From positions 1 through 45,792 of the forward strand of contig JAZDEQ010000067.1 of the NCBI GenBank assembly GCA_043808565.1: a stretch of DNA of 45,792 nucleotides. The letters are read 5' to 3'. The position numbers and the translations under genes are program-made. This DNA comes from Candidatus Uhrbacteria bacterium. Its GTDB lineage: Bacteria > Patescibacteriota > Patescibacteriia > UBA9934 > GWF2-40-263. Numbering within the stretch: the stretch's first letter is position 1; every line of letters starts with the position of its first letter. Shown piece after piece: positions 1 to 44,903 of the stretch. A model generated the notes under the pieces. That model was given only the letters and a program-made list of their open reading frames with translations. It was not told the DNA's origin and did no database searches.

Positions 1-51
1 CGAGGATCGGGAATAGATGAAAAAAATTCAAACAAAGTTCCTCCAAATTGC

Positions 52-82
52 ATAAAACATGGTCTTATTGACCATGTTTTAT
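52..82. terminator. Perfect 13-bp-stem hairpin of unknown assignment
   Basis: ATAAAACATGGTC (52..64) and GACCATGTTTTAT (70..82) are exact reverse complements with a 5-nt loop. It lies in AT-rich non-coding sequence downstream of the truncated RT. Confidence 0.3.
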
Positions 83-131
83 GATACCAGTTTTTTAAAA
101 TTTTGCTAAGTTTAGGTGAAATTAAGATGCG

Positions 132-692
132 TTAGCCCTGTCTAACGCCCCCCCCCCAAGGCGTTTCAGCTTGAAAACTTCCAATTATCTCGGACAAAAG
201 GCCGACGGTTTTTTGATCGGCTATTTTTCGTTTTAAAACCGCCAACAAAATCTCGTGATCCACCGAATCAAAAAACTTTTTGATATCGAATTTAAGAGCA
301 AAGCATGGCGAAGAATAATTTTTACTAACCCGACAAACAAAATCTTGAAGCCGCCGCACGGCGGCATGTGTACCTTTGCCGACTCGACAAGAATAACTGT
401 CAAAAATAAAACCCTTTTCAAAAATCGGCAAAAGAACTCGATAGACGGCGTGATGAACCAACCGATCTCGAACCATGGCTTTGTGAATAACTCGGTGTTT
501 AGGATCAAAAAGATGGAAACAATGATATTTGCCGTGGTAATAATTTCCATTTTTTAAATCTTCATGAAGAATAAAAATATTATCTTCAAGATTACGTTCG
601 AATTTCTGAACATCTGGTCTATTCTGTTTACCACACCTAAACTCGTGCCAGGCCGAAAATAAATTCTCTAAAGAAATAATTTTTTCAAACAT
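132..692 (-). pseudogene. DGR-type reverse transcriptase, 3'-truncated (N-terminal half only, no YxDD region)
   Basis: The 186-aa ORF is collinear from residue 1 with the full-length RT at 26851..27933 (MFEKIISLENLFSAW vs LFEQIVTTNNLFLAW; shared FDSYSCRVGKGTHAAV and DIKKFF). It ends right after a G10 run (C10 on the + strand, 158..167), where the paralog continues with IPLGNLTSQ and YCDD. All three frames hit stops within about 20 codons downstream. Confidence 0.75.
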
Positions 693-694
693 AT

Positions 695-1039
695 ATGCAA
701 GAAATATCCGAAACTCCGGTTTTTACTTTATCTTTTAACTTATTGAAGGACATTTATTTGCTACGCAAAAAATTTCCCAAGACTGAAAAATACACACTGG
801 GCGGACAAATGGAACAAACAGCTTTGGAAATAATGTTAAGTATTATTCAAGCCGGCCGGGCTAAAAAACAAGAAAAAATAATACCACTTGAATTAGCCAT
901 TAAGAAAAACGACACAACCAAAATTTTGTTTCGTTTGGCTAAGGAAATAAAACTTATCAGCGACCAACAATATTTAGAGTATCAAGAAAAACTGCAAAAA
1001 ATCGGACAAATGTTGGGCGGCTGGTATCGATCGATATGA
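695..1039 (+). CDS. avd: Avd-like accessory variability determinant (four-helix-bundle / 23S rRNA IVS protein family)
   Basis: 114 aa with FPKTEKYTLGGQ near the N-terminus and KIGQMLGGW at the C-terminus, typical of this family. The paralog at locus 2 has FPKSQRYTLGE and TGKMLGGW. It sits between the RT and TR of a DGR. Its start codon is 2 nt from the divergent RT start, inside the palindrome CATATATG (690..697). Confidence 0.8.
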   Translation: MQEISETPVFTLSFNLLKDIYLLRKKFPKTEKYTLGGQMEQTALEIMLSIIQAGRAKKQEKIIPLELAIKKNDTTKILFRLAKEIKLISDQQYLEYQEKLQKIGQMLGGWYRSI

Positions 1040-1072
1040 ATACTCCGCCTTTTTACAAAAGGCGGAGTATTC
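1038..1072. terminator. Perfect 12-bp hairpin between the avd stop and TR1
   Basis: GAATACTCCGCC (1038..1049) and GGCGGAGTATTC (1061..1072) are exact reverse complements. The loop TTTTTACAAAA can extend the stem. The hairpin lies 3' of avd on the + strand and immediately 3' of TR1 on the - strand. Confidence 0.5.
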
Positions 1073-1081
1073 GCGAAGCAG

Positions 1082-1211
1082 TCCCGGCGGAAGACGAGCG
1101 ACCCATAGTTCGGGTTGGCGATCTTGGCATTCCTGTTCAGGTTGAGCTTGGGCTGGCCGTTCCACACCTTGAGGTACGCGCAGTTGCCACGAGCGTCGCG
1201 GTTCACGGAGC
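1082..1211 (-). repeat. DGR template repeat TR1 (130 bp)
   Basis: It aligns without gaps to 1535..1664. All 13 mismatches are T on the + strand (A in the sense, - strand) in this copy. Sense translation gives the Asn-rich ..VNRDARGNCAYLKVWNGQPKLNLNRNAKIANPNYGSLVFRRD. Confidence 0.92.
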
Positions 1212-1530
1212 TTCCAATTATTGTCACACCCCATCTTTGTCACCAGGTTTTCCGCCAAAGCGGTTAACCTTGAATTTCATTTGGGATTTTTTCCACCAGA
1301 GCATGACAAGGAGTGCCTCGTTAGAATCACGCCCTTTTGTATTCATTTATTCGAACACAAAATTCCGGTGATAACTCTTTCGAGAATTTCGGGGACCCCG
1401 CTGCTCGCAAGCGGCGGGGCACAATACCCTACTTTCAAAAATTATTATAACGAAAATGCGCCAGAATCTCCAGATCTGACGCAAAAAAGAGGAGGAAAAA
1501 AGTGAAAAGACCAGAGGGACGAAGCGACAG

Positions 1531-2418
1531 TCACTCCCGGCGGAAGACGAGCGACCCATAGTGCGGGTAGGCGATCTCGGCATCCCTGTCCAGGAAGAGC
1601 TTGGGCTGGCCGCGCCACACCCCGAGGTACGCGCAGTCGCCACGAGCGTCGCGGTCCACGGAGCCGGGAAGGTCGATGATGTGCTCACCTTCCTTCACAA
1701 TGTCAACCTTGTGTGCATACGCCGTGACACCAACCATGGCCGTGCCGGCCAGAAGGTTGCCGGTGCACTCGATTCGGCAGTCGGTCGGCTTCCGATTCCG
1801 ATTCGACCGGCCGTCATTGCAGCGGAACCAGAACGGTTCCGTCGGATCGCTGTGCCGTTTGTCGCACGGCTCGGCACTTTCGTCGCCGTAGCCAAACTCG
1901 GCATACTTGATGCCGATGAGTTGGCACGCCTTGACGAGCCCCGGCCGAGGATCGGCCAGGAAAAGCAGAGGTAGTTTGGAATCGTTGGCGACCAGAAACG
2001 CAGGAATCTCTGGAATTCCCTCGAGATACGTCTCGAATATCACTCCTTCGCCCCCGAAACCGAGTTCGAACAATCGCCTGGCTTGCGCCAAACGAATTTC
2101 GGCCGGCGCCGACGGAGTGATGGGCGCCGGCATGGCGGCAGACGCTGCCGGCGGAACCGCGGCCGCTTCTCGCAGGACGAGGCGACCAGCGATGAGGTCT
2201 AAGACCTGTTGCGGAGTGATTTCCTTGTAGTAGAGCGCTCGACCCAGCGGATCTGTAGCGGTGTGGTTGACCATCAAGCCGTGGAAACCAGTGGTGGTGA
2301 ATCTCTTGGCCAGTTCAATGATCTGGCTCAGCCACCCAGGGACATCAAGGAGGGTTTCTCTTCTTTCTTCCATCTTTGGCTCCTTACCCCAAAATCCGAA
2401 AAATACAATCTCTTTCAC
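1531..2418 (-). CDS. DGR target (variable) protein 1, with a C-terminal VR-encoded domain ending ..YGSLVFRRE
   Basis: The 295-aa ORF is in a GC-rich block, and its last ~43 codons are VR1. Ten residues differ from the TR1-encoded sequence (N->D, D, R, F, D, D, Y, H; K->G, E). I see no N-terminal signal peptide or TM segment. Confidence 0.85.
   Translation of the reverse strand: MKEIVFFGFWGKEPKMEERRETLLDVPGWLSQIIELAKRFTTTGFHGLMVNHTATDPLGRALYYKEITPQQVLDLIAGRLVLREAAAVPPAASAAMPAPITPSAPAEIRLAQARRLFELGFGGEGVIFETYLEGIPEIPAFLVANDSKLPLLFLADPRPGLVKACQLIGIKYAEFGYGDESAEPCDKRHSDPTEPFWFRCNDGRSNRNRKPTDCRIECTGNLLAGTAMVGVTAYAHKVDIVKEGEHIIDLPGSVDRDARGDCAYLGVWRGQPKLFLDRDAEIAYPHYGSLVFRRE
1535..1664 (-). repeat. 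DGR variable repeat VR1 (130 bp)
   Basis: This is the 3' end of the 1531..2418 ORF. It is identical to TR1 except at 13 positions, all TR adenines in the sense strand (8 A->G, 3 A->T, 2 A->C). The first ~28 nt at the 3' (sense) end are invariant and GC-rich, as expected for an IMH. Confidence 0.92.
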
Positions 2419-3484: not shown

Positions 3485-6427
3485 TTATTCCACGACAAAC
3501 CCCACCGTTACATCGCACTCGTTCATTCTAAAAGATTCACAAATCTCTGGTCGCTCGCCGGTTGTTCGTAACGAGTTGGCTAACGTACCGTTTTTAATGG
3601 TTTCTTCGAATTCATTAATCATAGTTTGGGCTTCCGTGTCGGCGCTCTCAAAATATAATTCAATACGATTCTCAATGGTCAATTTATTGTTCTTGCGCAT
3701 TTCATTAACTCGACGAACCAAGTCGCGAGCCATGCCCTCGCGCAAAAGCTCGGGCGTTAAATTTACATCGAGCTCGACATTATATTCACCTTTTTCAATA
3801 ATAACGTTTTTAACGTTCACTTCGTCTTTAATAATGTTTACCAATTCCTCGTCCAGTTCGCCTTCTGGTAACCAAACGGTGGCTGAAGCTAAAGGCTGAC
3901 GAACCGCCCGACCGGTCTCGGAACGCTTTTCCAAAATTTTAGAAACCACTGAGCGCGAGCGAGCCATACGATCCAAAAGTTTTTCGTCAAGCAAGGTTTG
4001 GTCAACAGTTGGCCAAAGGTCGAGGTGAACAGATGACAAACCGCCGCCCAAACGCAAATAAATCGCTTCTGATAAAAATGGAGCAAATGGCGCCATTAAT
4101 TTAGAAACTGTTATCAAACCCTCACGAAGTGTGGCCAAAGCTGCGGCCTTATCGGCCTCGTCTTTGCCTTTAAATCGATCCCGACTGCGACGAACAAACC
4201 AAGTTGAAAGATCATTGATAAAATCTCCGATCGCTCGAACCGGCTCAGTCACTTTGAAACCATCAAGCTGTTCGGTCGATTCTTTGATCAATTGATTCAA
4301 ACGAGCAAGAACCCAACGATCTAAAACGTTCCCTGAAACCCCTTCAACCCCTTTCGCCCCTTCAACCCCTATATACAGTTCATAAAAAGTCATCACATTC
4401 CAAAGAATCATAAAAACTTTTTTGACCATTTCGTCTAGAGCTTTCAAATCAAAACGTTTGGAATCACCGGGTTGATTAATGGAATACATGTACCAACGAA
4501 CAGCGTCGGCACCGTATTGATTGATAGTAGAAATCGGATCAACGATATTACCAACAGACTTGGACATTTTTTTACCTTTGGCATCCAAAACATGACCGTA
4601 ACAAATAACATTTTTAAACGGCCGCTCTTTACCAAGCAAAGTCGCAACAGCCAACAAGGTATAAAACCAACCGCGAGTCTGGTCGATAGCTTCGGAAATA
4701 TAATCAGCTGGATAAGCTTCATTGGAATCAATTTTTTCTTTATTTTCAAAGGGATAATGCCATTGAGCAAACGGCATACAACCGGAATCAAACCAAACAT
4801 CGCAAACTTCAGTTACGCGTTTCATTTGGCTGCCACACTTTTCACATTTTATGAGAACACCATCGACGAACGGACGGTGCGGGTCAAACACCCCTCCCCC
4901 GTCCCCCGTCATCAACCCCTCACCCCCAGCCCCTTCTCCCCCGGGGAGAGGGGAGATTGAGCGAGCGTGGAGTTCGTCGAAACTTCCAATGCAAGATTTT
5001 TCTCCGCACTCACAAACCCAAACTGGTAATGGTGTGCCCCAATAACGTTCCCGTGAAAAGGACCAGTCTTTTACCTCACGCAACCACTCGCCGAAACGAC
5101 CGTCTTTAATGTAGTCCGGTTCCCAATGAATTTTGCTATTTTCTTCAATCAACTTGTCACGCAGACTGCTCATGCGGATATACCAAGAGTCTTTGGCATA
5201 ATAAACTAACGGCGATTTGCAGCGCCAACAAAAAGGATAAGTATGTTTAATTCTTTCTTGAGCTAAAAGCAAACCGCGAGCGGTTAAATCTTCTATAACT
5301 TTTGGATCAGCATCTTTAACAAACAAACCAGCAAACGATCCACAATCATCAGTCATCTTCCCATCCAAACCAACAAGATGAATTTTTGGCAAACCAATTT
5401 TTTGACCCAATTCAAAATCCTCAACGCCGTACATTACGGCTGTGTGGACAATACCCGAACCATCATCAAGAGAAACAAAGTCAGCTGGCACTACATACCA
5501 AGCTCGCTTCTTTCCTTCTTCGGTTCCAGCCATTTTCTTTTTGGTAAAATCATAAAGCGGTTCGTACTCCATACCAACCAAATCACTACCGGATTTTTCT
5601 TCAATAATTTCAAACTCACCTTTGGTAGCAACCTCAACTCGACTCTTCGCTAACCAAAGATTTTCATCTTGATGTTTTACTTTTACATAAGCCATGTTAG
5701 TACCAACAGCTAACGCCACATTGGCTGGCAAGGTCCACGGTGTGGTTGTCCAGGCCACTAAATACTCCGACTCTTTTGGTTCGGAACCATCGGCTAATTT
5801 TGTCACTTTAAATTTAATATAAACCGCTGGATCTTCAACTTCTTTATATCCTTGAGCTAACTCATGAGAAGACAACGAGGTTCCACAACGCGGACAATGT
5901 GGGACAACTTTGTAATCCTGATATAAAAATCCCTTATCCCAAATCTGTTTAATAACCCACCACAGTGACTCAATATATTCTGAATGATATGTGATGTAGG
6001 GATGATCAAGATCCAACCAAAAACCAATGCGTTTAGTAATTGACTGCCACTCTTCAAGATATTTCCAAACACTTTCACGACATTTTTCATTAAAAGGTTC
6101 AATGCCAAAATTTTCAATATCTTTTTTACCAGAAAAACCCAGCTGTTTTTCCACCTCAATTTCTACTGGCAAACCTTGGGTATCCCAGCCGGCTTTACGC
6201 TCAACCAAAAATCCCTGCATGGTGCGATAGCGCAAAATACAATCCTTAAAAGCTCGTCCTTCGATGTGGTGAATGCCGGGTTTGCCATTAGCTGTTGGCG
6301 GGCCTTCAAAAAAAACAAAGCGACCCTTAGGCGAAGCCTTGGCTAAAGTTTTTTCAAAAATCTTTTCAGCTTCCCAGTTTTTAAGAAGCTCTTCCTCGAT
6401 TTGAGGAAAGTTGGGGCGGTCGGACAT
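3485..6427 (-). CDS. ileS: Isoleucine--tRNA ligase
   Basis: 980 aa with the HIGH-type motif PPTANGKPGIHH, the KMSKS motif (GKKMSKSVGN), Cys clusters (HCPRCGT, CWRCKS, CECGEK, CEKCGS) and WFDSG. It contains two unusual Gly-rich inserts (see findings). Confidence 0.93.
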   Translation of the reverse strand: MSDRPNFPQIEEELLKNWEAEKIFEKTLAKASPKGRFVFFEGPPTANGKPGIHHIEGRAFKDCILRYRTMQGFLVERKAGWDTQGLPVEIEVEKQLGFSGKKDIENFGIEPFNEKCRESVWKYLEEWQSITKRIGFWLDLDHPYITYHSEYIESLWWVIKQIWDKGFLYQDYKVVPHCPRCGTSLSSHELAQGYKEVEDPAVYIKFKVTKLADGSEPKESEYLVAWTTTPWTLPANVALAVGTNMAYVKVKHQDENLWLAKSRVEVATKGEFEIIEEKSGSDLVGMEYEPLYDFTKKKMAGTEEGKKRAWYVVPADFVSLDDGSGIVHTAVMYGVEDFELGQKIGLPKIHLVGLDGKMTDDCGSFAGLFVKDADPKVIEDLTARGLLLAQERIKHTYPFCWRCKSPLVYYAKDSWYIRMSSLRDKLIEENSKIHWEPDYIKDGRFGEWLREVKDWSFSRERYWGTPLPVWVCECGEKSCIGSFDELHARSISPLPGGEGAGGEGLMTGDGGGVFDPHRPFVDGVLIKCEKCGSQMKRVTEVCDVWFDSGCMPFAQWHYPFENKEKIDSNEAYPADYISEAIDQTRGWFYTLLAVATLLGKERPFKNVICYGHVLDAKGKKMSKSVGNIVDPISTINQYGADAVRWYMYSINQPGDSKRFDLKALDEMVKKVFMILWNVMTFYELYIGVEGAKGVEGVSGNVLDRWVLARLNQLIKESTEQLDGFKVTEPVRAIGDFINDLSTWFVRRSRDRFKGKDEADKAAALATLREGLITVSKLMAPFAPFLSEAIYLRLGGGLSSVHLDLWPTVDQTLLDEKLLDRMARSRSVVSKILEKRSETGRAVRQPLASATVWLPEGELDEELVNIIKDEVNVKNVIIEKGEYNVELDVNLTPELLREGMARDLVRRVNEMRKNNKLTIENRIELYFESADTEAQTMINEFEETIKNGTLANSLRTTGERPEICESFRMNECDVTVGFVVE
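4909..4953. repeat. Copy of the DUF559-associated repeat (TCATYAACCCCTCAC..TCTCCCCCGGGGAGAGGGG), in-frame inside ileS
   Basis: TCATCAACCCCTCACCCCCAGCCCCTTCTCCCCCGGGGAGAGGGG closely matches 33589..33628 and 34052..34087. It includes the palindrome TCTCCCC-C-GGGGAGA (4935..4949). Confidence 0.7.
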
Positions 6428-6729: not shown

Positions 6730-7785
6730 ATGCTTAAATTGGCTGACAAACAACAACAAATAATCGCTATTTTATTAAAAAATAGTCCATTTTCCTCCTC
6801 ACAAATTCATTTGGAATTAGAAAAGTTTGGAGAAAAAACTTCCTTAATTACAACAAAAAGAGCTGTCTCGAAATTAGTCGAGCAAAAAATTTTACAAACT
6901 TCCGGAGCCGGAAGATCGGTTGTTTATACGTTAAACATACTTGGGCGAACACTGGCCGATGTGGACGCCAAAGAATACTGCTCGATTGAGCCGGATAAAC
7001 GCTATGGATTAAAACAATATAATTTTAATTTGTTTTCCGGTTTTCCAAAAGAAATTTTCTCTAAAGAAGAATTGGTGACTATGAAAGCCGCCACTCTTCA
7101 ATACAAACAAAGAACCAAAAATTTATCAGCAACGATTCAAAAAAAAGAATTAGAAAGATTGGTTATTGAACTCTCTTGGAAATCCTCGAAAATCGAAGGC
7201 AACACCTACACTCTTCTTGACACAGAAAAACTTTTATTGGAAAACAAAGTGGCGCCAAACAAAACCAAAGAAGAAACCCAGATGATTTTAAACCACAAGG
7301 AAGCTTTCAATTTTATTCATAAAAATTCCGAGCTGTTTAAAAATATCGGCAAAAAAAATCTTGAAGAATTACACAAAATTTTAGTCAAAAATTTAAACAT
7401 TGATATCAGTTTCCGTAAAAAACCCGTCGGTATAACCGGTTCGGCCTATCGTCCGCTTGATAATTTTTATCAAATCGGGGAAGCTGTGGAGGAATTAGAC
7501 GAAAAAATTTCACGAGCCAAAACACCTTACGACAAATCTTTTTTAGCTTTAATTGGCTTGTCTTACATTCAGCCTTTTGAAGATGGAAACAAAAGAACCA
7601 GCCGATTAATGGCCAACGCATTATTGTTAGCTCACGGTTTGGCTCCTTTATCTTATCGCAGCATTGACGAAGAAGAATATCGGGAAGCCTTACTGGTGTT
7701 TTACGAACTCAACGCTGTTAAACCGTTCAAAAAAATATTCATTGAACAATACATTTTCGCGGCAAATAATTATTTGGTTAAATAA
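6730..7785 (+). CDS. Fic/Doc-family protein with an N-terminal winged-helix domain and a non-canonical active-site motif
   Basis: 351 aa. The motif IQPFEDGNKRTSR occupies the position of the Fic consensus HxFx(D/E)GNGRxxR, with Gln in place of the catalytic His and NKR as in Doc. The N-terminal ~70 aa look like a wHTH. Confidence 0.7.
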   Translation: MLKLADKQQQIIAILLKNSPFSSSQIHLELEKFGEKTSLITTKRAVSKLVEQKILQTSGAGRSVVYTLNILGRTLADVDAKEYCSIEPDKRYGLKQYNFNLFSGFPKEIFSKEELVTMKAATLQYKQRTKNLSATIQKKELERLVIELSWKSSKIEGNTYTLLDTEKLLLENKVAPNKTKEETQMILNHKEAFNFIHKNSELFKNIGKKNLEELHKILVKNLNIDISFRKKPVGITGSAYRPLDNFYQIGEAVEELDEKISRAKTPYDKSFLALIGLSYIQPFEDGNKRTSRLMANALLLAHGLAPLSYRSIDEEEYREALLVFYELNAVKPFKKIFIEQYIFAANNYLVK

Positions 7786-23411: not shown

Positions 23412-23487
23412 GTGGTGGACTGATGGGGATTCGAACCCCAGACCCCCGCCTTGCAAAGGCGGTGCTCTACCAACTGAGCTATCAGCC
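23412..23487 (-). tRNA. tRNA-Ala (anticodon UGC), CCA encoded
   Basis: The reverse complement GGGCTGATAGCTCAGTTGGTAGAGCACCGCCTTTGCAAGGCGGGGGTCTGGGGTTCGAATCCCCATCAGTCCACCA folds as a 76-nt cloverleaf (7/4/5/5 stems). The anticodon loop is TTTGCAA, the G3:U70 Ala identity pair is present, and the T-loop is TTCGAAT. Confidence 0.95.
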
Positions 23488-23671
23488 CGTTTTTTTTTGG
23501 AAATTCGAAATTCGAAAATTAGTTTTGACTAATTTTTTAAAATCGAATTCACTCAAAAAGTATAGGGAAAAAAAATGATTTAGTCAAAAAAAACGAAAAG
23601 CGCGCTTAGGAAATTGTACCCCAAACGCGCCGATGATGATCCCGGCTTGGCCCCCCCTTTTTTTCTCTGCT

Positions 23672-24946
23672 TCATACTGCAGACCAGGCTGGGATGTAGC
23701 TCCAACGCACCGTCGTTGGACCCCTACTTACCTCTTCGAGGTTCTCGGTGATCCAGATAAACTTCCGGATCAAACCGATGGTCTCGGCCGACAGGGGGTC
23801 GGCTTCACGCCACCGACTGTCGGCGTGGGCTTCAAGAGCCCGCGACACCGTGTCAACGTTGGTGTTATGAGTAGCCACCAACACTTTCTGCCGCCAAGCT
23901 TCGTTCTTGATTCTTGAACGAGCTTTAGACGACAGTCTTGACTCGTTGTAATCTAAGTTGAGCAAGATCAATTTGAACGCCGAGACAAGTTCGGCACGTC
24001 CGTGGTTGGCATTATCCGACAAGCTGGCTGTCGGATATTCAACCCGCAGACCCTGATAGGTCTTTGGCATAACCTGACCGGCGCCGTAAGCGCCGCCCGG
24101 ACTTCCGGTTACGAGAACCGCTGGATTGGCGGCGATCTTCTCAAGCAAACCCGTCATGCAACCACGTTGTTCGACCACTGTCTTCCGACTGTCGAACGGA
24201 CTGCAGGTGAATGGCTGCTCGGCCAAGACGATCAGAACCGAAAGCTCGATATTCTCCTCACTGACCACCAGCTCGCCCGGGCGAGCCTTCGACGGAACGC
24301 CACGCTGGCGTAGATCGTCAGCAGCACCAACCGCGGCCCCCCGGAGAATTTCGAGTCCGGCTTGGGCTCTGGTGGTTTGGGCGGTGGAGATGACGGTAGC
24401 GGCCGTGGCCTCCTTCATTGGTGGAACGGGAACGGCAACTTTCGCCGCGCTCGTCCTATTCGGTTTCGATGATTCTTCGTCGAACACCTTTTCAATGTCA
24501 GTGCGCCCAAGGAGAAAAATCAGCGCCTCCCGAGCGCAGACTGAAAAAAAGAGGTTGGCGATCATGACGGCAACCACGCCGGTTCGAAGAACGCTCTGTC
24601 CTGGCGTCGCTGGCTTTTCTTCTTCGGAGACGTGTGTCTTGCGATTGGTCCACATAGCACCCCAAAGGAAAATTTGCCGACCAAGCGCCAAGACAGCTCC
24701 GAAACCACCAACATAAATAAGTGCTTCGATGGCGAATAGCATCGCCGCGACTACAGACTTTTCCCAACCGACCAGCCCAAAGAAGACACCGCTTCTCCAA
24801 ACAAAATCGGCCGAAAAGTAACCGCAGATCGCGGCCGCCGTCACGGTCATGACCACAACGGCCCATTTTCCCTTCAGTACTCTTTCCACATTCACCTCCA
24901 ACATCAGCTGTGAAGGGTTGGTTTTACTGCGACCGAGGTTGGCCAA
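23672..24946 (-). CDS. GC-rich membrane protein with a possible lytic-transglycosylase-like segment
   Basis: 424-aa ORF with a TTG start (internal ATGs are possible). It has three or more N-terminal hydrophobic segments. The C-terminal half contains GSPGGAYGAGQVMPKTYQ, reminiscent of the SLT GLMQ(I/V)MPxT motif. Its composition is far more GC-rich than its neighbours. Confidence 0.55.
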   Translation of the reverse strand: MANLGRSKTNPSQLMLEVNVERVLKGKWAVVVMTVTAAAICGYFSADFVWRSGVFFGLVGWEKSVVAAMLFAIEALIYVGGFGAVLALGRQIFLWGAMWTNRKTHVSEEEKPATPGQSVLRTGVVAVMIANLFFSVCAREALIFLLGRTDIEKVFDEESSKPNRTSAAKVAVPVPPMKEATAATVISTAQTTRAQAGLEILRGAAVGAADDLRQRGVPSKARPGELVVSEENIELSVLIVLAEQPFTCSPFDSRKTVVEQRGCMTGLLEKIAANPAVLVTGSPGGAYGAGQVMPKTYQGLRVEYPTASLSDNANHGRAELVSAFKLILLNLDYNESRLSSKARSRIKNEAWRQKVLVATHNTNVDTVSRALEAHADSRWREADPLSAETIGLIRKFIWITENLEEVSRGPTTVRWSYIPAWSAV

Positions 24947-25117
24947 CAGCTGATAAAGATAGTCGATAAATTGTTTTGTGTCAACAGTTTTCTGGTCAAA
25001 TTAGCAAAAATACGTTAAAATATGGCTAAATTATTTATCTGTTACGAATTACGAATCTTGCCGAAATCACGAATCAACGAATATTCGTGACCAATTCGTG
25101 GATTCGTGATTTCGCTG

Positions 25118-26850: not shown

Positions 26851-27933
26851 TTAAAATATTGATTCATCCGAACCAACCTTATTACGAATAATACATTCAA
26901 TTTCATAAGCATCTGCGTGCGAGCAAAAACCTAAATACGACTGAAAATTATTTCTGTCAGAACGATAAATAGCTCGTTTGGCTGTGGTTGGTCGAACCAA
27001 AATTACTTCCGGCAAGATAACGTATCCGAGAAAATCAACACCCTGCGTCCAAGTTGTTATAAAAACCTTATCAGGATGTAGGCGAACCTTAAGCCGACTT
27101 TGAAGAAATGTGTCAATCTTTTTTGCCAATTCCATTCCTTCGGATATTGATTGGGCTAAGATAACAAAATCATCACAGTAACGAACATAATGTTTTAGAC
27201 CTAATTTCTGTTTTACAAACCAATCCAATTCGTGAAGATAAATATTGGCAAAAAGCTGGCTAGTTAAGTTACCAAGCGGAATGCCCGTTTCGGGTGTGGT
27301 AGAAAAACTTCTTACAATATTACGAATAACAGCCATTGTTTTTTGATCGTGTATTCGTTTAGTGAGTAGCTCTAACAAAACAGCGTGGTTAACTGAAGCA
27401 AAAAACTTTTTAATATCGCATTTCACGGCATAGACAGTTTTGGTGTTATTTTCTGAAGCTTGTCGAAGAAAAAATCGAAGTCGTTTAACTGCGGCATGAG
27501 TACCCTTACCAACACGACAAGAATAGCTGTCAAAAATAAACCGTTTTTCAAATAGCAGTTCAATAACATTTACAATCGCTTGATGAACAACTCTATCCCG
27601 AACCAATGCTTTATGAATTGTTCTTTGTTTTGGATCATGAATAGTGAACGGGGTGTATTGGCTGTGATAATAATAACCGTCGGTTAATTCGTTTTGAAGC
27701 TGAAAAATATTGTCCTCAAGATTTTTTTCAAACAACATCACATCTTCTCGTCTGCGTTTGCCGTTTCGGAATAATTCCCAAGCCAAAAATAAATTATTGG
27801 TAGTCACTATTTGTTCGAACAAATTATTTTCTTTTTGATTATGGATAAGGTTAACACTCTCCCTTTCTCCAAAAAATTTGAGGCCGAGCGCAAGTTGTTC
27901 AACGGCGGGCCCGGCGATATCCCGATTGTTCAT
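26851..27933 (-). CDS. DGR reverse transcriptase (full length)
   Basis: 360-aa ORF with IPLGNLTSQLFANIYL (the DGR-typical xGNLTSQ motif) and YVRYCDDFVI (YxDD). By alignment with the locus-1 RT, the true start is probably the TTG at 27822 (MFEQIVTTNNLF), inside the perfect palindrome TTGTTCGAACAA (27811..27822). Confidence 0.9.
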   Translation of the reverse strand: MNNRDIAGPAVEQLALGLKFFGERESVNLIHNQKENNLFEQIVTTNNLFLAWELFRNGKRRREDVMLFEKNLEDNIFQLQNELTDGYYYHSQYTPFTIHDPKQRTIHKALVRDRVVHQAIVNVIELLFEKRFIFDSYSCRVGKGTHAAVKRLRFFLRQASENNTKTVYAVKCDIKKFFASVNHAVLLELLTKRIHDQKTMAVIRNIVRSFSTTPETGIPLGNLTSQLFANIYLHELDWFVKQKLGLKHYVRYCDDFVILAQSISEGMELAKKIDTFLQSRLKVRLHPDKVFITTWTQGVDFLGYVILPEVILVRPTTAKRAIYRSDRNNFQSYLGFCSHADAYEIECIIRNKVGSDESIF

Positions 27934-28287
27934 ACTGTTTACGACATTTATGTTTCTTGGAATGAAATCATTTTAAAGTTTCCGAAATCGCAACGCTATA
28001 CACTTGGTGAAACTTGTTCCAAATATATTTTAACAATTCTTGAAAACTTACTCTTCGCCGCTTCGGCCGGTGAAATATCTGAAAAACTTCCAAAACTGAA
28101 AACCGTTAGCGCAGAAATCGACACCTTAAAACTTCTCGTTCGACTGGCAAAGGACTGCAAATGTATTGCCAATAATCAATATCAAAAAATTGAATCACTA
28201 CTAAACGAAACCGGAAAAATGTTGGGTGGCTGGATAAAATCATTTGGTAAAGGAAATGAAAATGAAGACGAAAAGGAGCACCTGTAG
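27841..28287 (+). CDS. avd: Avd-like accessory variability determinant (four-helix-bundle protein)
   Basis: FPKSQRYTLGE.., ..LVRLAKDCKCIANNQYQKIESLLNETGKMLGGW, collinear with the locus-1 Avd. The start is uncertain: ATG 27841, TTG 27895, or the track's TTG 27811. It is divergent from and abuts the RT. Confidence 0.8.
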   Translation: MDKVNTLPFSKKFEAERKLFNGGPGDIPIVHTVYDIYVSWNEIILKFPKSQRYTLGETCSKYILTILENLLFAASAGEISEKLPKLKTVSAEIDTLKLLVRLAKDCKCIANNQYQKIESLLNETGKMLGGWIKSFGKGNENEDEKEHL

Positions 28288-28308: not shown

Positions 28309-28433
28309 CTCCCTGCGGACGGGCATGGCGTTCTTGTAGAATCGGTTGTCGACATAGTTGCCGTTCAGCTTCGCCCTGTCGTCGTTCCGCCAGACATTCG
28401 GCGAGTTAGACCACTCGTCGTAGTCGGGAACGC
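28309..28433 (-). repeat. DGR template repeat TR2 (125 bp)
   Basis: It aligns without gaps to 28853..28977. All 16 mismatches are T on the + strand (A in the sense strand) in this copy. The sense translation is Asn-rich: VPDYDEWSNSPNVWRNDDRAKLNGNYVDNRFYKNAMPVRRE. Confidence 0.92.
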
Positions 28434-28837
28434 GTCCAGTTACATTTCATTCTTCCAAGACACCGGGCACAGACGCATCCATACCCTGAATTTTATGTGA
28501 AACCCTCTGACCAAGAATCAACAAACACTTTTTTATTGGTTTGGTTTCAAAATGAAATGCGGAGTGCTCATTAATCCGTTCCGTACACTTCTGTCTTCAA
28601 GAGAAAGCAGAACCCTGACGGCGTTTAGGATTACGAGAGATTTCGGCGGCCAGTATCCGTGAACACTGGTACATTAGCCTACTTTCCAATCATTAGTTTA
28701 TCAAAATTTTCTCAAAAAGAAGAGCCGCATTCGAAGATGCGACTCTGGGGTCGAAAATTCGGATGCGGCGAGGTGCTTCGCACCGGAAAGCCAAGTGGCA
28801 AATTGCCAAGGCTTCCAAGTGCAAAGCATTCAAGTGT

Positions 28838-29665
28838 CTAGAGCTTGTTGGGCTCCCTGCGGACGGGCATGGCGCGCTCGTAGAATCGGCAGTCGACATA
28901 GTCGCCGCTCAGCTCCGCCCTGCCGCCGCCCCGCCAGACACCCGGCGAGAGAGACCACTCGTCGTAGTCGGGAACGCTGAGAAGGAGTGCGGCCATGATG
29001 GCATAAGGAATCTTTTCTCCATCCATTTGGCGTACCCACTCCGGATGCTGGCTGGCGGCAAAGAGGGGCTCAAAATCGGCAAGGTGTCCAATTTGCTTCT
29101 GTTGAACCTCAGCGAGAACCGTACCATCGCGTCGGTTCCAGTTGGCGCCGAAGTCCACGATGTGCAGGGCGAGTTCGTTCGGAACGAACGTGCGGGCACC
29201 TTCTATAAGCTTGATTCGCTTGTCATCGACACCGTTCGCGTAGGCTGCGTCCCATTCCGAATACTTTTCACTGTGAGCCGTCCGCATCAACGCACGGCCA
29301 AAGAGGAGTGTTGCGGGCACGGATTCGCGGTTGGAGACGATGACCGGAGCGAGCAGGCGGGACTTCGGCAATTCGGCCTCGAAGAGTTCGAACAGCCCAC
29401 GATCACGAGCCTTCGCGAGCATGATGTCGATCATGTCACCAGTCACACCTTCGTACTCACGCGCCATCGCCACGACGTCGTCGAGGGGTGACCAGATGCC
29501 GTGGATGAGACGGAAAACGGGATCTAGCATGGCAGTATCGAACATTGCCTTCATGATGCCCGGATTCTGATTGATCTTCCGACCCTGTTCGGCAGTGAAG
29601 AACTCACCCATGATCCGCTTGAGCTCGGTGAGTTCGCCGTCACGCAGGTTCGAGAAATGAGACAT
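28838..29665 (-). CDS. DGR target (variable) protein 2
   Basis: 275-aa GC-rich ORF whose last ~45 codons are VR2 (..VPDYDEWSLSPGVWRGGGRAELSGDYVDCRFYERAMPVRREPNKL). Eleven residues differ from the TR2-encoded sequence. No signal peptide or TM segment is evident. Confidence 0.85.
   Translation of the reverse strand: MSHFSNLRDGELTELKRIMGEFFTAEQGRKINQNPGIMKAMFDTAMLDPVFRLIHGIWSPLDDVVAMAREYEGVTGDMIDIMLAKARDRGLFELFEAELPKSRLLAPVIVSNRESVPATLLFGRALMRTAHSEKYSEWDAAYANGVDDKRIKLIEGARTFVPNELALHIVDFGANWNRRDGTVLAEVQQKQIGHLADFEPLFAASQHPEWVRQMDGEKIPYAIMAALLLSVPDYDEWSLSPGVWRGGGRAELSGDYVDCRFYERAMPVRREPNKL
28853..28977 (-). repeat. DGR variable repeat VR2 (125 bp)
   Basis: Identical to TR2 except at 16 positions, all TR adenines in the sense strand (12 A->G, 2 A->C, 2 A->T). 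Both ends are invariant. Confidence 0.92.
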
Positions 29666-33588: not shown

Positions 33589-33628
33589 TCATTAACCCCT
33601 CACTCAACCTCTCCCCCGGGGAGAGGGG
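33589..33628. repeat. DUF559-flanking repeat, left copy (TCATTAACCCCTCACTCAACCTCTCCCCCGGGGAGAGGGG)
   Basis: Shares the AACCCCTCAC..TCTCCCCCGGGGAGAGG core with 4909..4953 and 34052..34087, and with an inverted copy at 34101..34162. Confidence 0.7.
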
Positions 33629-33651
33629 CTAAACAAGGCGGAAGGATACAA

Positions 33652-34051: not shown

Positions 34052-34162
34052 CCAACCCCTCACCCAACCTCTCCATCAGGGAGAGGAGTTAAAATGATCT
34101 TCTCTCCCCGGGGGAGAGATAAGAGAGAGGGGTTGAGAGAGACCAAAGAAAGGGGTGAGGTG
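34052..34162. repeat. DUF559-flanking repeats, right side (one direct copy plus one inverted copy)
   Basis: The direct copy is CCAACCCCTCACCCAACCTCTCCATCAGGGAGAGG (34052..34087). The inverted copy is the palindrome TCTCTCCCCGGGGGAGAGA (34101..34119) followed by GAGAGGGGTTGAGAGAG..AGGGGTGAGGTG. Confidence 0.65.
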
Positions 34163-40545: not shown

Positions 40546-40655
40546 TTCTGGCGTCGACCTACTCTCGCCCAAACGGACTACCATCGGCCCAGGAGGTCTT
40601 AACGGCTGTGTTCGGGATGGGAACAGGTGTTACCCCTCCGGAAATGACACCAGAA
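40546..40655 (-). rRNA. rrf: 5S rRNA
   Basis: The reverse complement reads TTCTGGTGTC..CCCATCCCGAACACAGCCGTTAAG..GGCCGATGGTAGT..GCGAGAGTAGGTCGACGCCAGAA, matching conserved 5S blocks. It is flanked by a 9-bp processing stem (GTCCCACAG/CTGTGGGAC). Confidence 0.9.
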
Positions 40656-41104
40656 CTGTGGGACTTTTCAAATTTTTTTCAAACTTGAAGATCAAGAGAA
40701 TTTATCGAGAATATCAAATGACAAATTTTGAAATGACCAATGGTGGATTTTATATCTTAAAAATATTTTTCCATCATTAGACATTTGTCATTGAACAATT
40801 TGACATTCCCACCAGATCGCTGCTTACAGTGATCGTAGAGCTCGACTTATTAGTACCGCTCCGCTACACGCATTACTGCGCTTCCACGTACGGCCTATCA
40901 ACCTGCTAGTCTCGCAGGAGTCTATTAATGAAGGCTAATCTTAAGGTCGGCTTCACGCTTAGATGCTTTCAGCGTTTATCCGAACCGAACGTAGCTACCC
41001 GGCACTACTCTTGGCAGAATAACCGGTACACTAGAGGTTCGTCCATCTCGGTCCTCTCGTACTAGAGATGAATCCTTGCAACCTTCGGCGCCCATGGTAG
41101 ATAG

Positions 41105-41156
<52 letters not shown>

Positions 41157-41763
41157 TGGCGAACAGCCAAACCCTTGGAACCTTCTCCAGCTCCAGGATG
41201 CGACGGGCCGACATCGAGGTGCCAAACCCCCCCGTCGATGTGGACTCTTGGGGGGGATCAGCCTGTTATCCCCGGAGTAGCTTTTATCCGTTGAGCTTCC
41301 GCCGTCCTATTTCGTACGGTCGGATCACTAACTTCCGCTTTCGCGACTGCGCGACTTGTCTGTCTTGCAGTAAAGCAGGCTTATGCGTTTGCACGTCCAG
41401 CGCGATTTCCATCCGCGCTAAGCCTACCTTTGTAAACGCCTCCGTTACTTTTTGGGAGGCACCCGCCCCAGGTAAACTACCCACCAGCTACTGTCCCAAC
41501 CACCGGATAACGGTGATCGGTTAGAATTCACGTGACGCAAGGGTGGTGTCTCATTGGCGCCTTGCGGCTCCCACCTACTCTGAACATGCGAAACATGAAC
41601 CCAATAACAAGTTGTAGTAAAGCTTCACGGGGTCTTTTCGTCTAACCACGGGTAATGAGCATCTTCACTCATCTTGCAATTTCACCGAGTCCCTTGTTGA
41701 GACAGTCATCAACTCGTTATGCCATTCGTGCAGGACGGAACTTACCCGTCAAGGAATTTCGCT

Positions 41764-42512
41764 CTTTTTTTGTTACCGCCTTTTGGCGAGTGCAAACATT
41801 TCTGTTGCACTCTGTATGTCGCCATACAGATCGGACTATATCTTTCGTGAACCATTACGGTTCACGATCCGGCGTGTAGTCTCTGAGGATTTCAGAAATC
41901 GCGATGGAACCTTTCGGTTCATGCTTTGGATAATTTTTGCGATTTTTTTAAGACCTTGAAAATTTTTATGAATTTCTTGATCCATTAGAACAAGAATTTT
42001 CTTAAATTTTTTTAAGTCTTCTTTTTTTGCTGTTCTTAAAGGATTTCTTACAAAGAAAGGAATTATCTTTTCTTTTAAATCTTTTCTGGAACGAACGCAA
42101 AACCGCAAAAGGTTTTCTTTGTGATTATCATGACGGCGATTTAAATATATCTCACCGCATTGAAAATATTTTTTAATTATTTCCAAAGCTGATCGACTTT
42201 TTTCGCCCTGGGTCACAACAAACTCAGGAAAAACCTGCCAACCACAAGAGGTGGTTGAGTTACGAATTAATGAAACAGAGAAGCAGCCCTCTCCGTCAAC
42301 AAATCCGCAAATCCAATTATCAATTCCTGACCTTTCCTGCTGATTGTCTGCATTTGAAACTTTTTTACTTGGCATAACTATGTACGTATTATACCTTAGT
42401 AGTTCAAAATTCACCAGATGTTCCAGCATTTAGCCAGATTTTTTCTCTACATCTTCATGGCACACGAAGTTCGAGAAGAGGGCTTTCACCTCACTAAGGC
42501 AGCTTTTATCCT
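41764..42512 (-). mobile_element. Group I intron in the 23S rRNA (between ..CCUAAGGU and AGCGAAAUUCC..)
   Basis: The conserved exon sequence CCTAAGGTAGCGAAATTCC is split by 749 nt. The 5' exon ends in U and the insert ends in G (..CAAAAAAAG), as group I splicing requires. It contains a LAGLIDADG ORF. Confidence 0.8.
41836..42429 (-). CDS. LAGLIDADG homing endonuclease (single-motif type)
   Basis: 197 aa with NWICGFVDGEGCFSV (the LAGLIDADG motif). It lies entirely within the rRNA insertion and has AT-rich codon usage. Confidence 0.85.
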   Translation of the reverse strand: MLEHLVNFELLRYNTYIVMPSKKVSNADNQQERSGIDNWICGFVDGEGCFSVSLIRNSTTSCGWQVFPEFVVTQGEKSRSALEIIKKYFQCGEIYLNRRHDNHKENLLRFCVRSRKDLKEKIIPFFVRNPLRTAKKEDLKKFKKILVLMDQEIHKNFQGLKKIAKIIQSMNRKVPSRFLKSSETTRRIVNRNGSRKI

Positions 42513-43399
42513 ACCTTAGGACGATTATAGTTATCGCCGGCGTTCATCAGCGCTTCAGTTGGAGGCTGCCCCCCGCACCTTTACCACCAGCAATCCGTCG
42601 TCTAGTGACGGACTGATGAAAAAGGTGCGGGGATGACCCCCTCCCTTAACGTTCTGACACTGGCCAGGCATCAGCCCCTATACATCAGCTTGCGCTTTAG
42701 CAGGGACCTGTGTTTTTGATAAACAGTCGGTTGATGTCTTTCGCTGCGGGTCGCCCCCTCCCGGGGGCAACCAGGCCTTATTCCAAAGTTACGGCCACTG
42801 TTTTGCCGAGTTCCTTAACAAAGGGTTCTCTCGTACGCCTTGGCACATTCGCGTGCCCACCCACCTGTGTCGGTTTCCGGTACGGGTCCATTTTACCTAA
42901 CCTTAGAGGTTTTTCTAGGTTCTCTTTCTCTTCCCCTTGCTCACCTTGCGGCAAGCTTGCGATCACGTTCGAATTTAACGGCTGGCGGATTTGCCTACCA
43001 ACCATTCCAACGCGCCCAACGTCATAGCCATAGGACGCGGGAAGATACGGAAAACGTCACCCCTTCGAAATAAAACGGAGTGCAGGAATATTAACCTGCT
43101 GTGCATCGACTACGCCTTTCGGCCTCATCTTAGCTCCCGACTAACCCTAGGACGATTCTCGTTGCCCAGGAAACCTCGGGTTTACGGCGGACAGGATTCT
43201 CACCTGTCTTTGTGCTACTTATGCCAACATTCTCTCTTCGCAACGCTCCACCATGCCTCACGACACGACTTCAGCGCAGATGCGAATGCTCCCCTACCGC
43301 TTAATCTTGCGATTAAACCCTCAACTTCGGTACATCATTTAGCCCCGGTACATTTTCGGCGCGGAAAGGCTTGACCAGTGAGCTGTTACGCTATCTTTA

Positions 43400-43436
<37 letters not shown>

Positions 43437-44051
43437 GAGCCTCTCTACCACCTTTTACACTTAATGATGATTTAGGGACCTTAGTTTGAGATCTGGACTG
43501 TTTTCCTTTTGACGTATGGAGCTTAGCCCCCATCGTCTGACTGCCGGGAACACTTATTGGTATTCGGAGTTTGGTTAGGAGTTCTATCTTGCGACGAACG
43601 TCCCATTCAGTGCTCTACCCCCAATGTGTTATTTACCGACGCTAGCCCAAAAGCTATCTCGGGGAGAACCAGCTATTACCGAGTTCGATTGGAATTTCTC
43701 CGCTAACCACAGCTCATCTCCACGTGTTGTACGGCGTGTGAGTTCGGGCCTCCACGAACTGTTACATTCGCTTCACCCTGGCCATGGTTAGGTCACCCGG
43801 TTTCGGGTCGTATATGTGCTACCTTCTGACTATGTTCAAGGCGGGAGAATTACTTCTCCGGCTTGAACAAAGTCAGATAACGCGCTTGAACGCTCGCTTT
43901 CACTCCGGCTCCGCCCCATAGGGCTTAACCAAGCAACACATAGTACACTCGTTGGCTCATTCTTCAATAGGAACGCTATCACCCCAGAGATTACTCTCGA
44001 GGCTCTAACTCCTTGTAAGCATACGGTTTCAGATACTATTTCATTCCCCTT

Positions 44052-44084
<33 letters not shown>

Positions 44085-44437
44085 GGTGCACTATCGATCA
44101 GAACACGTATTTAGTCTTGCCACATAGTCGCGGCAGGTTCCCACAAGATTTCACGGGTCTCGTGGTACTCAAGAGCGCTTAAAACCTTAACTAAAAATAT
44201 TTTACGTACAGGACTATCACCTTCTATGGTTCCACTTTCCAGTGGATTTCATTATATTTAAAGTTAAAGTCGATTTTCGGCAGAAAATCACTTAAACGCC
44301 TTACAACACCCTACTAACAACGGCTGCCACCTTTCATTTTGCTTCATCAAGTAAACTTGATTCCGCAAAACTTCATCAATAAGGTTTGGACTGTTCCCTT
44401 TTCGTTCGCCACTACTAAGGGAATGGACTCGCTGATA

Positions 44438-44510
44438 TGTAGAAGTCGTATAAGACGTAGAAATCGTAGATTTTACAATCTACGTTTTCTACGATTCTAC
44501 GCTTTCTACA
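44438..44510 (-). repeat. IVS-like long hairpin of CGTAGA/TCTACG words inside 23S domain I
   Basis: TGTAGAAGTCGTATAAGACGTAGAAATCGTAGATT / AATCTACGTTTTCTACGATTCTACGCTTTCTACA form an imperfect palindrome. It is inserted between the conserved GGAAA..AGATTAACTCATTGA and AGCGAGTCCATTCCCTTAGTAGTGGCGAACG blocks. Confidence 0.6.
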
Positions 44511-44903
44511 ATCAATGAGTTAATCTTTTTCCTTTCCTCTGGGTACTGAGATGTTTCACTTCCCCAGGTGCCCTTCCGGCGCCTATGTATTCAGCGACGG
44601 ATAATCGCGTTTTACGCGATTGGGTTGCCCCATTCGGATATTCCCGGATCAAAGGTTGCTTGCCACCTCCCCGAGACTTTTCGCAGGCTGCTACGTCCTT
44701 CATCGGCATGTTCTGTCGAGCCATCCTCCGTATGCCCTTAATGCTCTACAATCACTGAAAGAATCGATCCTTCAGTGTTTAAAATTTGTTCATTACCACT
44801 ATTGGTTCTCTTGATCTTCAGTTGTGAATGATCTATTCGGATCCATCCGGATCCGTGGCGTAGGGAACAAAATTTTTTGTTCCGTACACCGCGATCCCGG
44901 AGT

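Follow-up and report, generated by a model that had tools for sequence, protein, structure and literature searches.

How does a variable repeat (VR) come to be diversified beside a reverse transcriptase (RT) gene that lacks its catalytic half? This question is raised by a contig of 45,792 bp from a Candidatus Uhrbacteria bacterium (GenBank assembly GCA_043808565.1, contig JAZDEQ010000067.1), analyzed over its whole length (hereafter, the window), which carries two cassettes of the diversity-generating retroelement (DGR) type. In cassette 1, the template repeat TR1 and its variable copy VR1 differ at adenines only, and the open reading frame (ORF) of the RT, RT1, breaks off shortly after a run of ten G; cassette 2, located 26 kb away, has an intact enzyme, RT2. 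A sequence-only reading of this DNA had offered a choice between VR1 as a fossil of past activity and RT2 acting on TR1 in trans. Its premises, an inactive RT1 and an adenine-mutagenized VR1, held; the choice itself was incomplete, as it left out a third option, in which a deletion (recent or polymorphic) or a contig-end join arose at an unstable repeat. On balance, the evidence presented here tips towards VR1 having been diversified by its own phase-variable RT1, which would then have recently lost its 3' half at the repeat.

A diversified repeat next to a truncated RT

The coordinates of all features are collected in Table 1. Gapless alignment of TR1 and VR1 over 133 nt (1079-1211 vs. 1532-1664) confirmed the 13 differences counted earlier (8 A>G, 3 A>T and 2 A>C), each of which falls on a T of the + strand of TR1, i.e., on an A of the coding (-) strand. 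With T making up 29 of the 133 TR bases, and hence 29 adenines on the coding strand, the chance of 13 out of 13 is approximately (0.22)^13, or ~3e-9, while none of the ~100 non-A positions inside the repeat is mismatched. The substituted adenines sit in AAC/AAG codons, and VR1 forms the final 43 codons of the target gene T1, in frame and with no stop inside. A 14th difference, G/C at 1081/1534, lies at the 3' boundary, where the - strand reads ..GGGACTG in TR and ..GGGAGTG in VR. It looks like a boundary of the initiation of mutagenic homing (IMH/IMH*) type, and possibly a mark of directionality, because the same difference is present in a related locus (L001, 5609 region; related loci are numbered L001 onwards).

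RT1 provides the N-terminal half of a DGR RT. Over residues 1-181 it shares 55% identity with RT2 (E 1e-69); it covers only positions 8-106 of the 205 in the Pfam RVT_1 profile and has its closest relatives, among 5.8 billion proteins, in P0002 (86% identity) and P0003/P0004 (81-82%). As stated in the sequence-only reading, and borne out here by the ORF, a frame check and tblastn, RT1 ends before both the DGR motif 4, (I/L)GxxxSQ, and the catalytic YxDD, and no frame continues it: GNLTSQ and YxDD were absent from the three frames downstream of the G10 tract. A tblastn search with RT2 detected no RT C-terminal half anywhere in the window, the whole contig, which ruled out a split gene with the missing part located elsewhere in it. 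A length error in this tract (C10 on the + strand), previously envisaged as a way in which an intact gene might be restored, would repair nothing: the relatives have motif 4 beginning 20-110 nt downstream of the tract, and here no frame of the remaining 148 nt contains it. That the locus cannot encode an active RT thus holds for this contig. Cassette 1 is a Patescibacteria DGR by descent and by its cis parts, and it is not autonomous on this contig because RT1 lacks motif 4 and YxDD and nothing else in the window supplies them for RT1.

Homology to other RTs ends at 150/142, i.e., up to 7 nt past the tract. These 7 nt, CGTTAGA, are the only post-G10 sequence common to the window and L005 (G10-CGTTAGAAGAAAATGCC..), and (T)CGTTA occurs at the same position in many relatives. 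A terminator scan detected a terminator-like hairpin at 148-129, in which CGTTAG pairs with CTAACG 6 nt further on, followed by ATCTTAATTT. The rest of the contig is a tail with promoter-like and ribosome-binding elements (Table 1), from which a possible gene starting at TTG may run off the contig end. No significant similarity was found between the tail and the RT linkers, C-halves or 3' flanks of relatives, and its identification as the normal 3' flank of the RT gene was rejected, there being no homology to the flanks of L001, L004 and L005. As a decayed RT, it aligned locally to 25 relatives no better than shuffled sequences (37/200 reach the score), and, with the comparison confined to the matching position, its first ~45 nt matched the motif-4 start of L011/L009 only marginally (32/1000 shuffles; 5% of random window 48-mers). 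Exact 46-mer scans of genome and metagenome contigs, as well as a hairpin-pattern scan of metagenome contigs, retrieved no sister-strain contig reaching left of the window, and no identical protein was retrieved for RT1, Avd1 or the neighboring 280-aa protein. Upstream of the tract, the window (159-170) lacks a 54-nt in-frame segment (..SSALRLGSEPSGSRTVSNP..) which is present in L001, L004 and L005, so that both tract flanks differ by deletions.

RT genes interrupted by simple-sequence repeats in the relatives

Termination of the RT at this point was not peculiar to the window. Approximately 112 of the best 120 RT1 homologs were 170-250 aa long and ended at the same position, just after 'GGGG' or 'ERERER', their tails being out-of-frame translations of GNLTSQLFANVY. 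We fetched 80 species-level loci, 35 of which had both RT halves plus a repeat and 45 of which were repeat-free. The repeat occupied the same linker between motifs 3 and 4, as poly-G in 27 loci (G7-G12, mostly G10) and as (GA)n in 10 (14-46 nt). The C-half was out of frame ('off') in 26 of the 35 repeat loci with both halves and in frame ('on') in nine; frames 0/+1/+2 were distributed 6/15/4 among the poly-G loci and 3/5/2 among the (GA)n loci. It was in frame in all 45 repeat-free loci, RT2 included. L001 (G9) and L004 (G8), which are among the closest relatives, had the C-half in another frame.

The out-of-frame C-halves have the features of genes in use. They were intact ORFs, mostly 136-166 aa in length, with two shorter exceptions among the 26 (104 aa in L044 and 8 aa in L051), and their ratios of non-synonymous to synonymous substitution rates (dN/dS) of 0.085-0.24 indicated purifying selection. 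In 21 off loci, 373 of 393 TR/VR mismatches (94.9%) fell at TR adenines, and non-A mismatches per non-A site amounted to 0.010, compared with 0.016 in the repeat-free loci. Even where two RTs on one contig were both off (L012 and L013), the TR/VR pairs were still clean and A-only. To judge from these sequences, the interrupted RTs of the clade would be live, functional genes. Because their C-halves are constrained and their TR/VR pairs clean, to find a diversified VR alongside an interrupted RT ORF is normal in this clade; thus, when an RT stops at the tract and its VR is clean and A-only, this alone gives no evidence for trans service or death.

Different states of the same gene were also found among near-identical sequences. 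Protein clusters at 90% identity held off, other-off and on forms of the RT with identical N-termini, one of them comprising ..NPRGGARRN.. (G9, off), ..NPRGGG* (G10, off) and ..NPRGGGLEEIARSHGLPIGNLTSQ.. (G11, on, 348 aa). Likewise, L085-L087 (G11, 348-aa RT) and L002 (G9, 220 aa) showed no difference over 7,000 bp other than two G's; three of these four contigs trace to one groundwater project by record name or sample number. Tract-length polymorphism that toggles the frame between otherwise identical genomes was therefore observed, in the relatives only. There, the tract would operate as a DNA-level on/off switch of the RT, because near-identical contigs differ only in G9 vs. G11, and transcriptional or translational slippage on it may add leaky expression. 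Programmed ribosomal frameshifting of one fixed kind was discarded as the sole explanation for the clade, since each repeat type is found in all three phases and G9, G10 and G11 exist as DNA alleles. By analogy with L005, the G10 of the window would be off phase even with the rest of the gene present; with the part downstream of the repeat absent, this allele is no longer able to switch on.

Breakage at the repeat was observed once more. In L020 (CAYNRK010000005.1, 806-1460), an RT N-half is followed by G8 and no C-half within 3 kb, which would make it a second, independent case of an RT ending at the repeat, and the repeat seems to be a place where the RT gene breaks. Cassette 1 and L020 are the two loci observed in which loss of the RT gene is marked by the repeat. 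In L020, a converging gene of 477 aa, resembling a sugar transferase by eye, lies ~40 nt past the tract. Seven further loci (L026, L034, L038, L040, L048, L060 and L062) carry in the linker in-frame inserts of 46-175 nt made of palindromic units (e.g., TTCCCGCCTAAGCGGGAATGAC), in place of a simple repeat. Insertions seem to concentrate in this linker, where the protein would tolerate them.

Poly-G, poly-C or dinucleotide tracts in coding regions are known as simple-sequence contingency loci from Neisseria, Haemophilus and Campylobacter. The RT genes share with them a mono- or dinucleotide repeat inside the ORF, three phases among relatives, otherwise identical genomes differing in tract length and, in the relatives, a downstream part under selection. 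They differ in that the switched gene is a mutator, the DGR RT, instead of a surface or restriction-modification gene, and in that switching is known here from comparisons between genomes; transcriptional or ribosomal slippage on the tract may be a contributor too. It appears likely that the poly-G/(GA)n tract evolved as a contingency switch, through which DGR hypermutation becomes phase-variable across Patescibacteria.

Leader RNAs, cassette 2 and the origin of the VR1 changes

Several components of cassette 1 other than the RT bear on the origin of VR1. The start codons of RT and avd lie back to back on opposite strands, 2 nt apart (CAT-AT-ATG, window 690-697; 5998-6001 in L004), and therefore an RT transcript has to traverse avd in antisense, the leader/TR promoter being its probable origin, while the avd mRNA must begin inside the RT coding region. 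The promoter-like site overlapping the T1 terminator would be the start of the leader/TR RNA. The layout of a hairpin plus TATAAT downstream of the target gene is also present in relatives: in every related locus, the target gene is followed by a terminator, a TATAAT-like box and then ~220 nt of conserved RNA abutting the TR 5' end. In the window, this leader runs through GAAAGUAGGG, a hairpin, CCCCGAAAU and a long-range helix enclosing AAAUGAAAUUCA, a hairpin and GGUG..GAUGG.

RNAalifold analysis of 44 loci (alignment A2) yielded 28 pairs, 25 with compensatory changes; 91.7% of the cells were paired, vs. 61% after shuffling and <=51% after sliding, and the covariation score was 0.84 vs. 0.26. 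With a covariance model of the 3' domain (R1), 68 of 81 loci each gave a single copy, always immediately upstream of TR, and the window gave two, one per cassette. Leader 1 (1211-1320) scored 97.6 bits, near the top of the relatives' range, and leader 2 (28432-28570), from which it differs by a ~35-nt insert, 31.7 bits. These would be different subfamilies of one leader RNA family. Across the 68 loci, the R1 score falls as the RT diverges from RT1, suggesting co-divergence of leader RNA and RT. The closest Rfam entry was RT-16 (RF03019), which, by its name, we take to be an RT-associated RNA motif. It matched the 3' domain of leader 1 upstream of TR1 over its full length (1215-1362), at a sub-threshold 28.3 bits (E 0.03; gathering score 50), did not match leader 2 at E up to 1 and reached its gathering score in none of 20 relatives, so that leader 1 is a distant relative of it at best. 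The strongly covarying RNA directly 5' of TR in this DGR family is thus not in Rfam at threshold.

Cassette 2 is the paralogous cassette that the sequence-only reading had recognized: the RTs are 55% and the Avds 39% identical, and both Avds match Pfam bAvd. RT2 carries GNLTSQLFANIYL and YCDD, its linker is in frame and free of simple-sequence repeats, and all 16 TR2/VR2 mismatches (16/16) fall at TR adenines. TR1 and TR2, formerly described as unrelated, are so over most of their length; nevertheless, they share a GC-rich 3'-terminal element (..TCCGCCGGGA vs. ..TCCGCAGGGA on the - strand), and TCCGC(C/A)GGGA is common to the 3' ends of TR1/VR1 and TR2/VR2. Comparison of their flanks revealed a leader of the same family next to both, albeit of the two subfamilies described above.

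We infer that RT1 itself wrote VR1 and that the loss of its 3' half is recent. Cassette 1 is ordered on the - strand as target gene with C-terminal VR, terminator-like hairpin, promoter-like site, ~225-nt leader RNA, TR, opposite-strand avd and RT. Changes in tract length between motifs 3 and 4 would move the catalytic C-half in and out of frame, making the RT phase-variable, and most genomes would be caught in the off phase with the element still working over evolutionary time. The 13 A-only differences would have been written by the cassette's own RT while complete and on; on this contig, the allele combines an off-phase G10 with the loss of everything from 7 nt past the tract and is locked off, possibly as only one structural variant in the population. 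The parts left behind show no relaxation. The dN/dS of the RT1 N-half vs. relatives is 0.10-0.17 and that of Avd1 vs. the L004 Avd 0.08, and changes unique to RT1 number 10 synonymous and 8 non-synonymous, compared with 9/7, 21/16 and 18/7 in relatives keeping both halves. With no sign of decay in the RT1 N-half, Avd1, TR/VR or leader, either the loss is recent by this measure or the components remain in use. By the same token, it is highly improbable that the RT was lost long ago and that TR1 and VR1 are its leftovers: although the locus is unable to make an RT, an old fossil sits poorly with the absence of non-A mismatches, the intact non-coding TR and leader, and the sustained constraint on the RT1 N-half and avd1.

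Several points nonetheless weigh against a recent loss from a self-sufficient cassette. Recency rests only on the absence of decay, which with 18 lineage-specific substitutions has coarse resolution. A simple deletion does not account for the 7-nt complementarity, which produces a terminator-like hairpin precisely at the junction (129-148). Intact avd1, leader and TR1 are equally predicted by continued use in trans. Moreover, only 141 (±2) nt of contig follow the junction, which may accordingly be a population variant or a mis-join and not the fixed state of the genome. This last point belongs to a further explanation, which we regard as rather unlikely: the truncation would be a contig-end artefact or a minority variant, the majority genome carrying a complete, repeat-interrupted RT1 and the cassette being an ordinary autonomous phase-variable DGR. 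The value of 141 is the default largest k-mer of MEGAHIT, a widely used assembler that may or may not have produced this contig. A contig that ends one k-mer past a junction is the output of a de Bruijn assembler at a branching node, and this stop suggests such a node, with the tail in more than one context in the sample; tract-length heterogeneity is indeed present in such populations. However, an extension of 141 nt needs many junction-spanning k-mers and hence several reads with the junction, the tail has a coherent layout of terminator, promoter, ribosome-binding site and start, and the like truncation in L020 is followed by 3 kb of ordinary genes. In addition, should the marginal match of the first ~45 nt reflect a weak remnant of the RT, the breakpoint would shift and the k-mer coincidence would dissolve.

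Service in trans, with RT2 and either Avd2 or the intact Avd1 reverse-transcribing the leader-TR1 RNA and cassette 1 being a non-autonomous satellite of cassette 2, is in our judgement unlikely. RT2 is complete, as had been stated when this option was first suggested, and has all motifs and a repeat-free linker. The cis parts of cassette 1 are intact too, including the promoter-like site, the leader helices, TR1 with its adenines, a constrained avd1 and the GC-rich 3' element, and both cassettes share the TR/VR 3'-end motif and a leader of one family. Further, plasmid-supplied avd, TR and brt can act on remote targets, according to Wu et al. (2018, PMC5758913); yet there a cognate RT, Avd and TR act on a remote VR, which differs from an RT using a foreign TR RNA. 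Nothing specifically favors RT2 on TR1, given the RT and Avd identities of only 55% and 39% and leaders of different subfamilies in a family whose RNA and RT have apparently co-diverged across 68 loci. Relatives with out-of-frame RTs show an equally clean signature, and since this includes L012 and L013, where both RTs are off, no helper RT is needed to explain such signatures. Less likely still is the combination in which the contingency switch holds and, jointly, cassette 1 is an RT-less satellite (leader RNA, TR1 and Avd1) run in trans by RT2.

Known systems, genomic context and significance

Table 1. Positions of the DGR components and other features in the window.
Feature	Position	Strand	Remarks
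Tail unrelated to RT	1..141	-	promoter-like TTAGCA-17-TATCAT (109-81), 14-bp-stem hairpin (84-51), GGAGG (44-40), possible TTG start (31-29)
Junction	129..148	-	RT-derived CGTTAGA (148-142), CTAACGC (135-129), RT1 stop codon 134-132
RT1 ORF	132..692	-	186 aa; N-terminal half of DGR RT, RT motifs 1-3; homology to relatives ends ~142
G10 (C10 on +) simple-sequence repeat	149..158	-	phase-variable position of the clade, between RT motifs 3 and 4
avd1	695..1039	+	strand opposite to TR and RT; Pfam bAvd E 3e-15
Perfect hairpin ATACTCCGCC..GGCGGAGTAT	1040..1070		between avd1 stop and TR1 3' end; opposite-strand self-match
TR1, template repeat	1082..1211	-	homology 1079-1211; homologous to TRs of L001 and L004
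Leader RNA 1	1212..1436	-	~225 nt directly 5' of TR1; covarying structure
Promoter-like site TGGAGA-17-TATAAT	1472-1444	-	overlaps T1 terminator hairpin; 10/12 matches in promoter scan
Terminator-like hairpin of T1	1458-1482 (within 1444..1482)	-	read from sequence
VR1, variable repeat	1535..1664	-	13 differences vs. TR1, all at TR adenines
Target gene T1	1531..2373	-	280 aa from ATG at 2373; ORF reaches GTG at 2418; C-terminal VR
RT2	26851..27933	-	intact DGR RT; probable true start TTG at 27822; RVT_1 positions 8-205 of 205
avd2	27811..28287	+	probable start ATG at 27843; Pfam bAvd E 2e-17
TR2, leader RNA 2 and VR2	28309..28977	-	TR2 28309-28433, leader ~28434-28680, VR2 28853-28977
Target gene T2	28838..29665	-	not homologous to T1
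5S rRNA	40546-40654		
23S rRNA gene	40831-44751	-	3,921 nt vs. 2,925-nt model; ~1 kb insertion
LAGLIDADG endonuclease ORF in 23S insertion	41836-42429	-	Pfam E 1.4e-22

The DGR of Bordetella phage BPP-1 (avd-TR-Sp-brt, with mtd as target) resembles the cassettes of the window in its adenine-specific transfer from TR to VR, the VR at the 3' end of the target ORF, the accessory protein Avd, the GC-rich element common to TR and VR 3' ends and, for cassette 2, an RT with the (I/L)GxxxSQ and YxDD motifs. Cassette 1 departs from it in the placement of avd, which sits between TR and RT in the opposite orientation, its start codon back to back with that of RT, in a target with no recognizable Mtd-like sequence and in an RT without its catalytic half. 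Further, the conserved structured RNA of the cassettes lies 5' of TR, whereas the Sp region of BPP-1, an essential non-coding RNA, is reported to lie 3' of TR (by Handa and co-workers in 2018).

The cassette layout of the window matches all 80 related loci fetched. DGRs of the Patescibacteria, or candidate phyla radiation, form DGR clade 2 of Roux et al. (2021, PMC8144416) and were reportedly also treated by Paul and co-workers in 2017; the presence of more than one DGR in the genome is another feature in common with them. Frameshifts, homopolymers and truncated RTs are not mentioned in the searched text of the two large DGR surveys (PMC8144416 and PMC5758913), and neither the repeat-interrupted RT clade nor the leader RNA appears to be described in them. 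A limited literature search retrieved nothing relevant on phase-variable DGRs; the novelty of the repeat-controlled RT clade is probable rather than established.

T1 belongs to a family of 18 hypothetical proteins, mostly named Uhrbacteria, in which the 280-aa form is on record (P0121). No Pfam match was obtained for T1. Its AlphaFold model (mean predicted local distance difference test, pLDDT, 79.9) was confident over residues 90-280; in a Foldseek search of the PDB nothing was retrieved at E below 0.001, and the top weak matches, none of them significant, were C-type-lectin-like domains (E about 0.8) and Mtd. No third cassette or extra VR was found within the 45,792 bp.

RT1 homologs are named Uhrbacteria or Patescibacteria, and a 23S rRNA insertion bearing a LAGLIDADG endonuclease, as found here, is a known trait of the Patescibacteria group; no 16S rRNA gene is present in the window. 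Three GC-rich islands (52-62% GC, the genome being at roughly 40%) were located at 1000-2500, 23500-25000 and 28500-29500. Two of them coincide with the DGR target genes and TRs, and the remaining one with an ORF at 23672-24946 (424 aa, no Pfam match, no TR match) beside tRNA-Ala (23413-23488). Copies of a palindromic repeat (..CCTCTCCCCCGGGGAGAGGGG..) occur at 4919-4958, 33594-33633 and 34054-34093, one of them inside an isoleucyl-tRNA synthetase-like ORF (3485-6427), where it encodes a Gly/Glu-rich insert. A Fic/DOC-domain protein is encoded within 5 kb of the DGR in the window (6730-7785, +), in L001 (3134-4066) and also in the Uhrbacteria relatives L002 and L003; its N-terminal DNA-binding domain is Penicillinase_R in the window and, weakly, HTH_3 in L001-L003. 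The other flanking genes called near the DGR differ between the window and L001-L003.

The repeat-controlled RT clade is the larger result of this analysis. For the window itself, the lesson is that neither death nor trans service can be read from an RT stop at the tract, yet the 3' half is truly gone from this contig. Little appears to be known about what restrains DGR mutagenesis. If the switch proposed here is real, a hypermutable repeat within the RT gene would provide a second-order switch, leaving most cells with a silent diversifier that rare changes in tract length, or slippage during expression, would turn on. For annotation, surveys requiring a full-length RT ORF will miss many Patescibacteria DGRs or misclassify them as truncated or fragmented.

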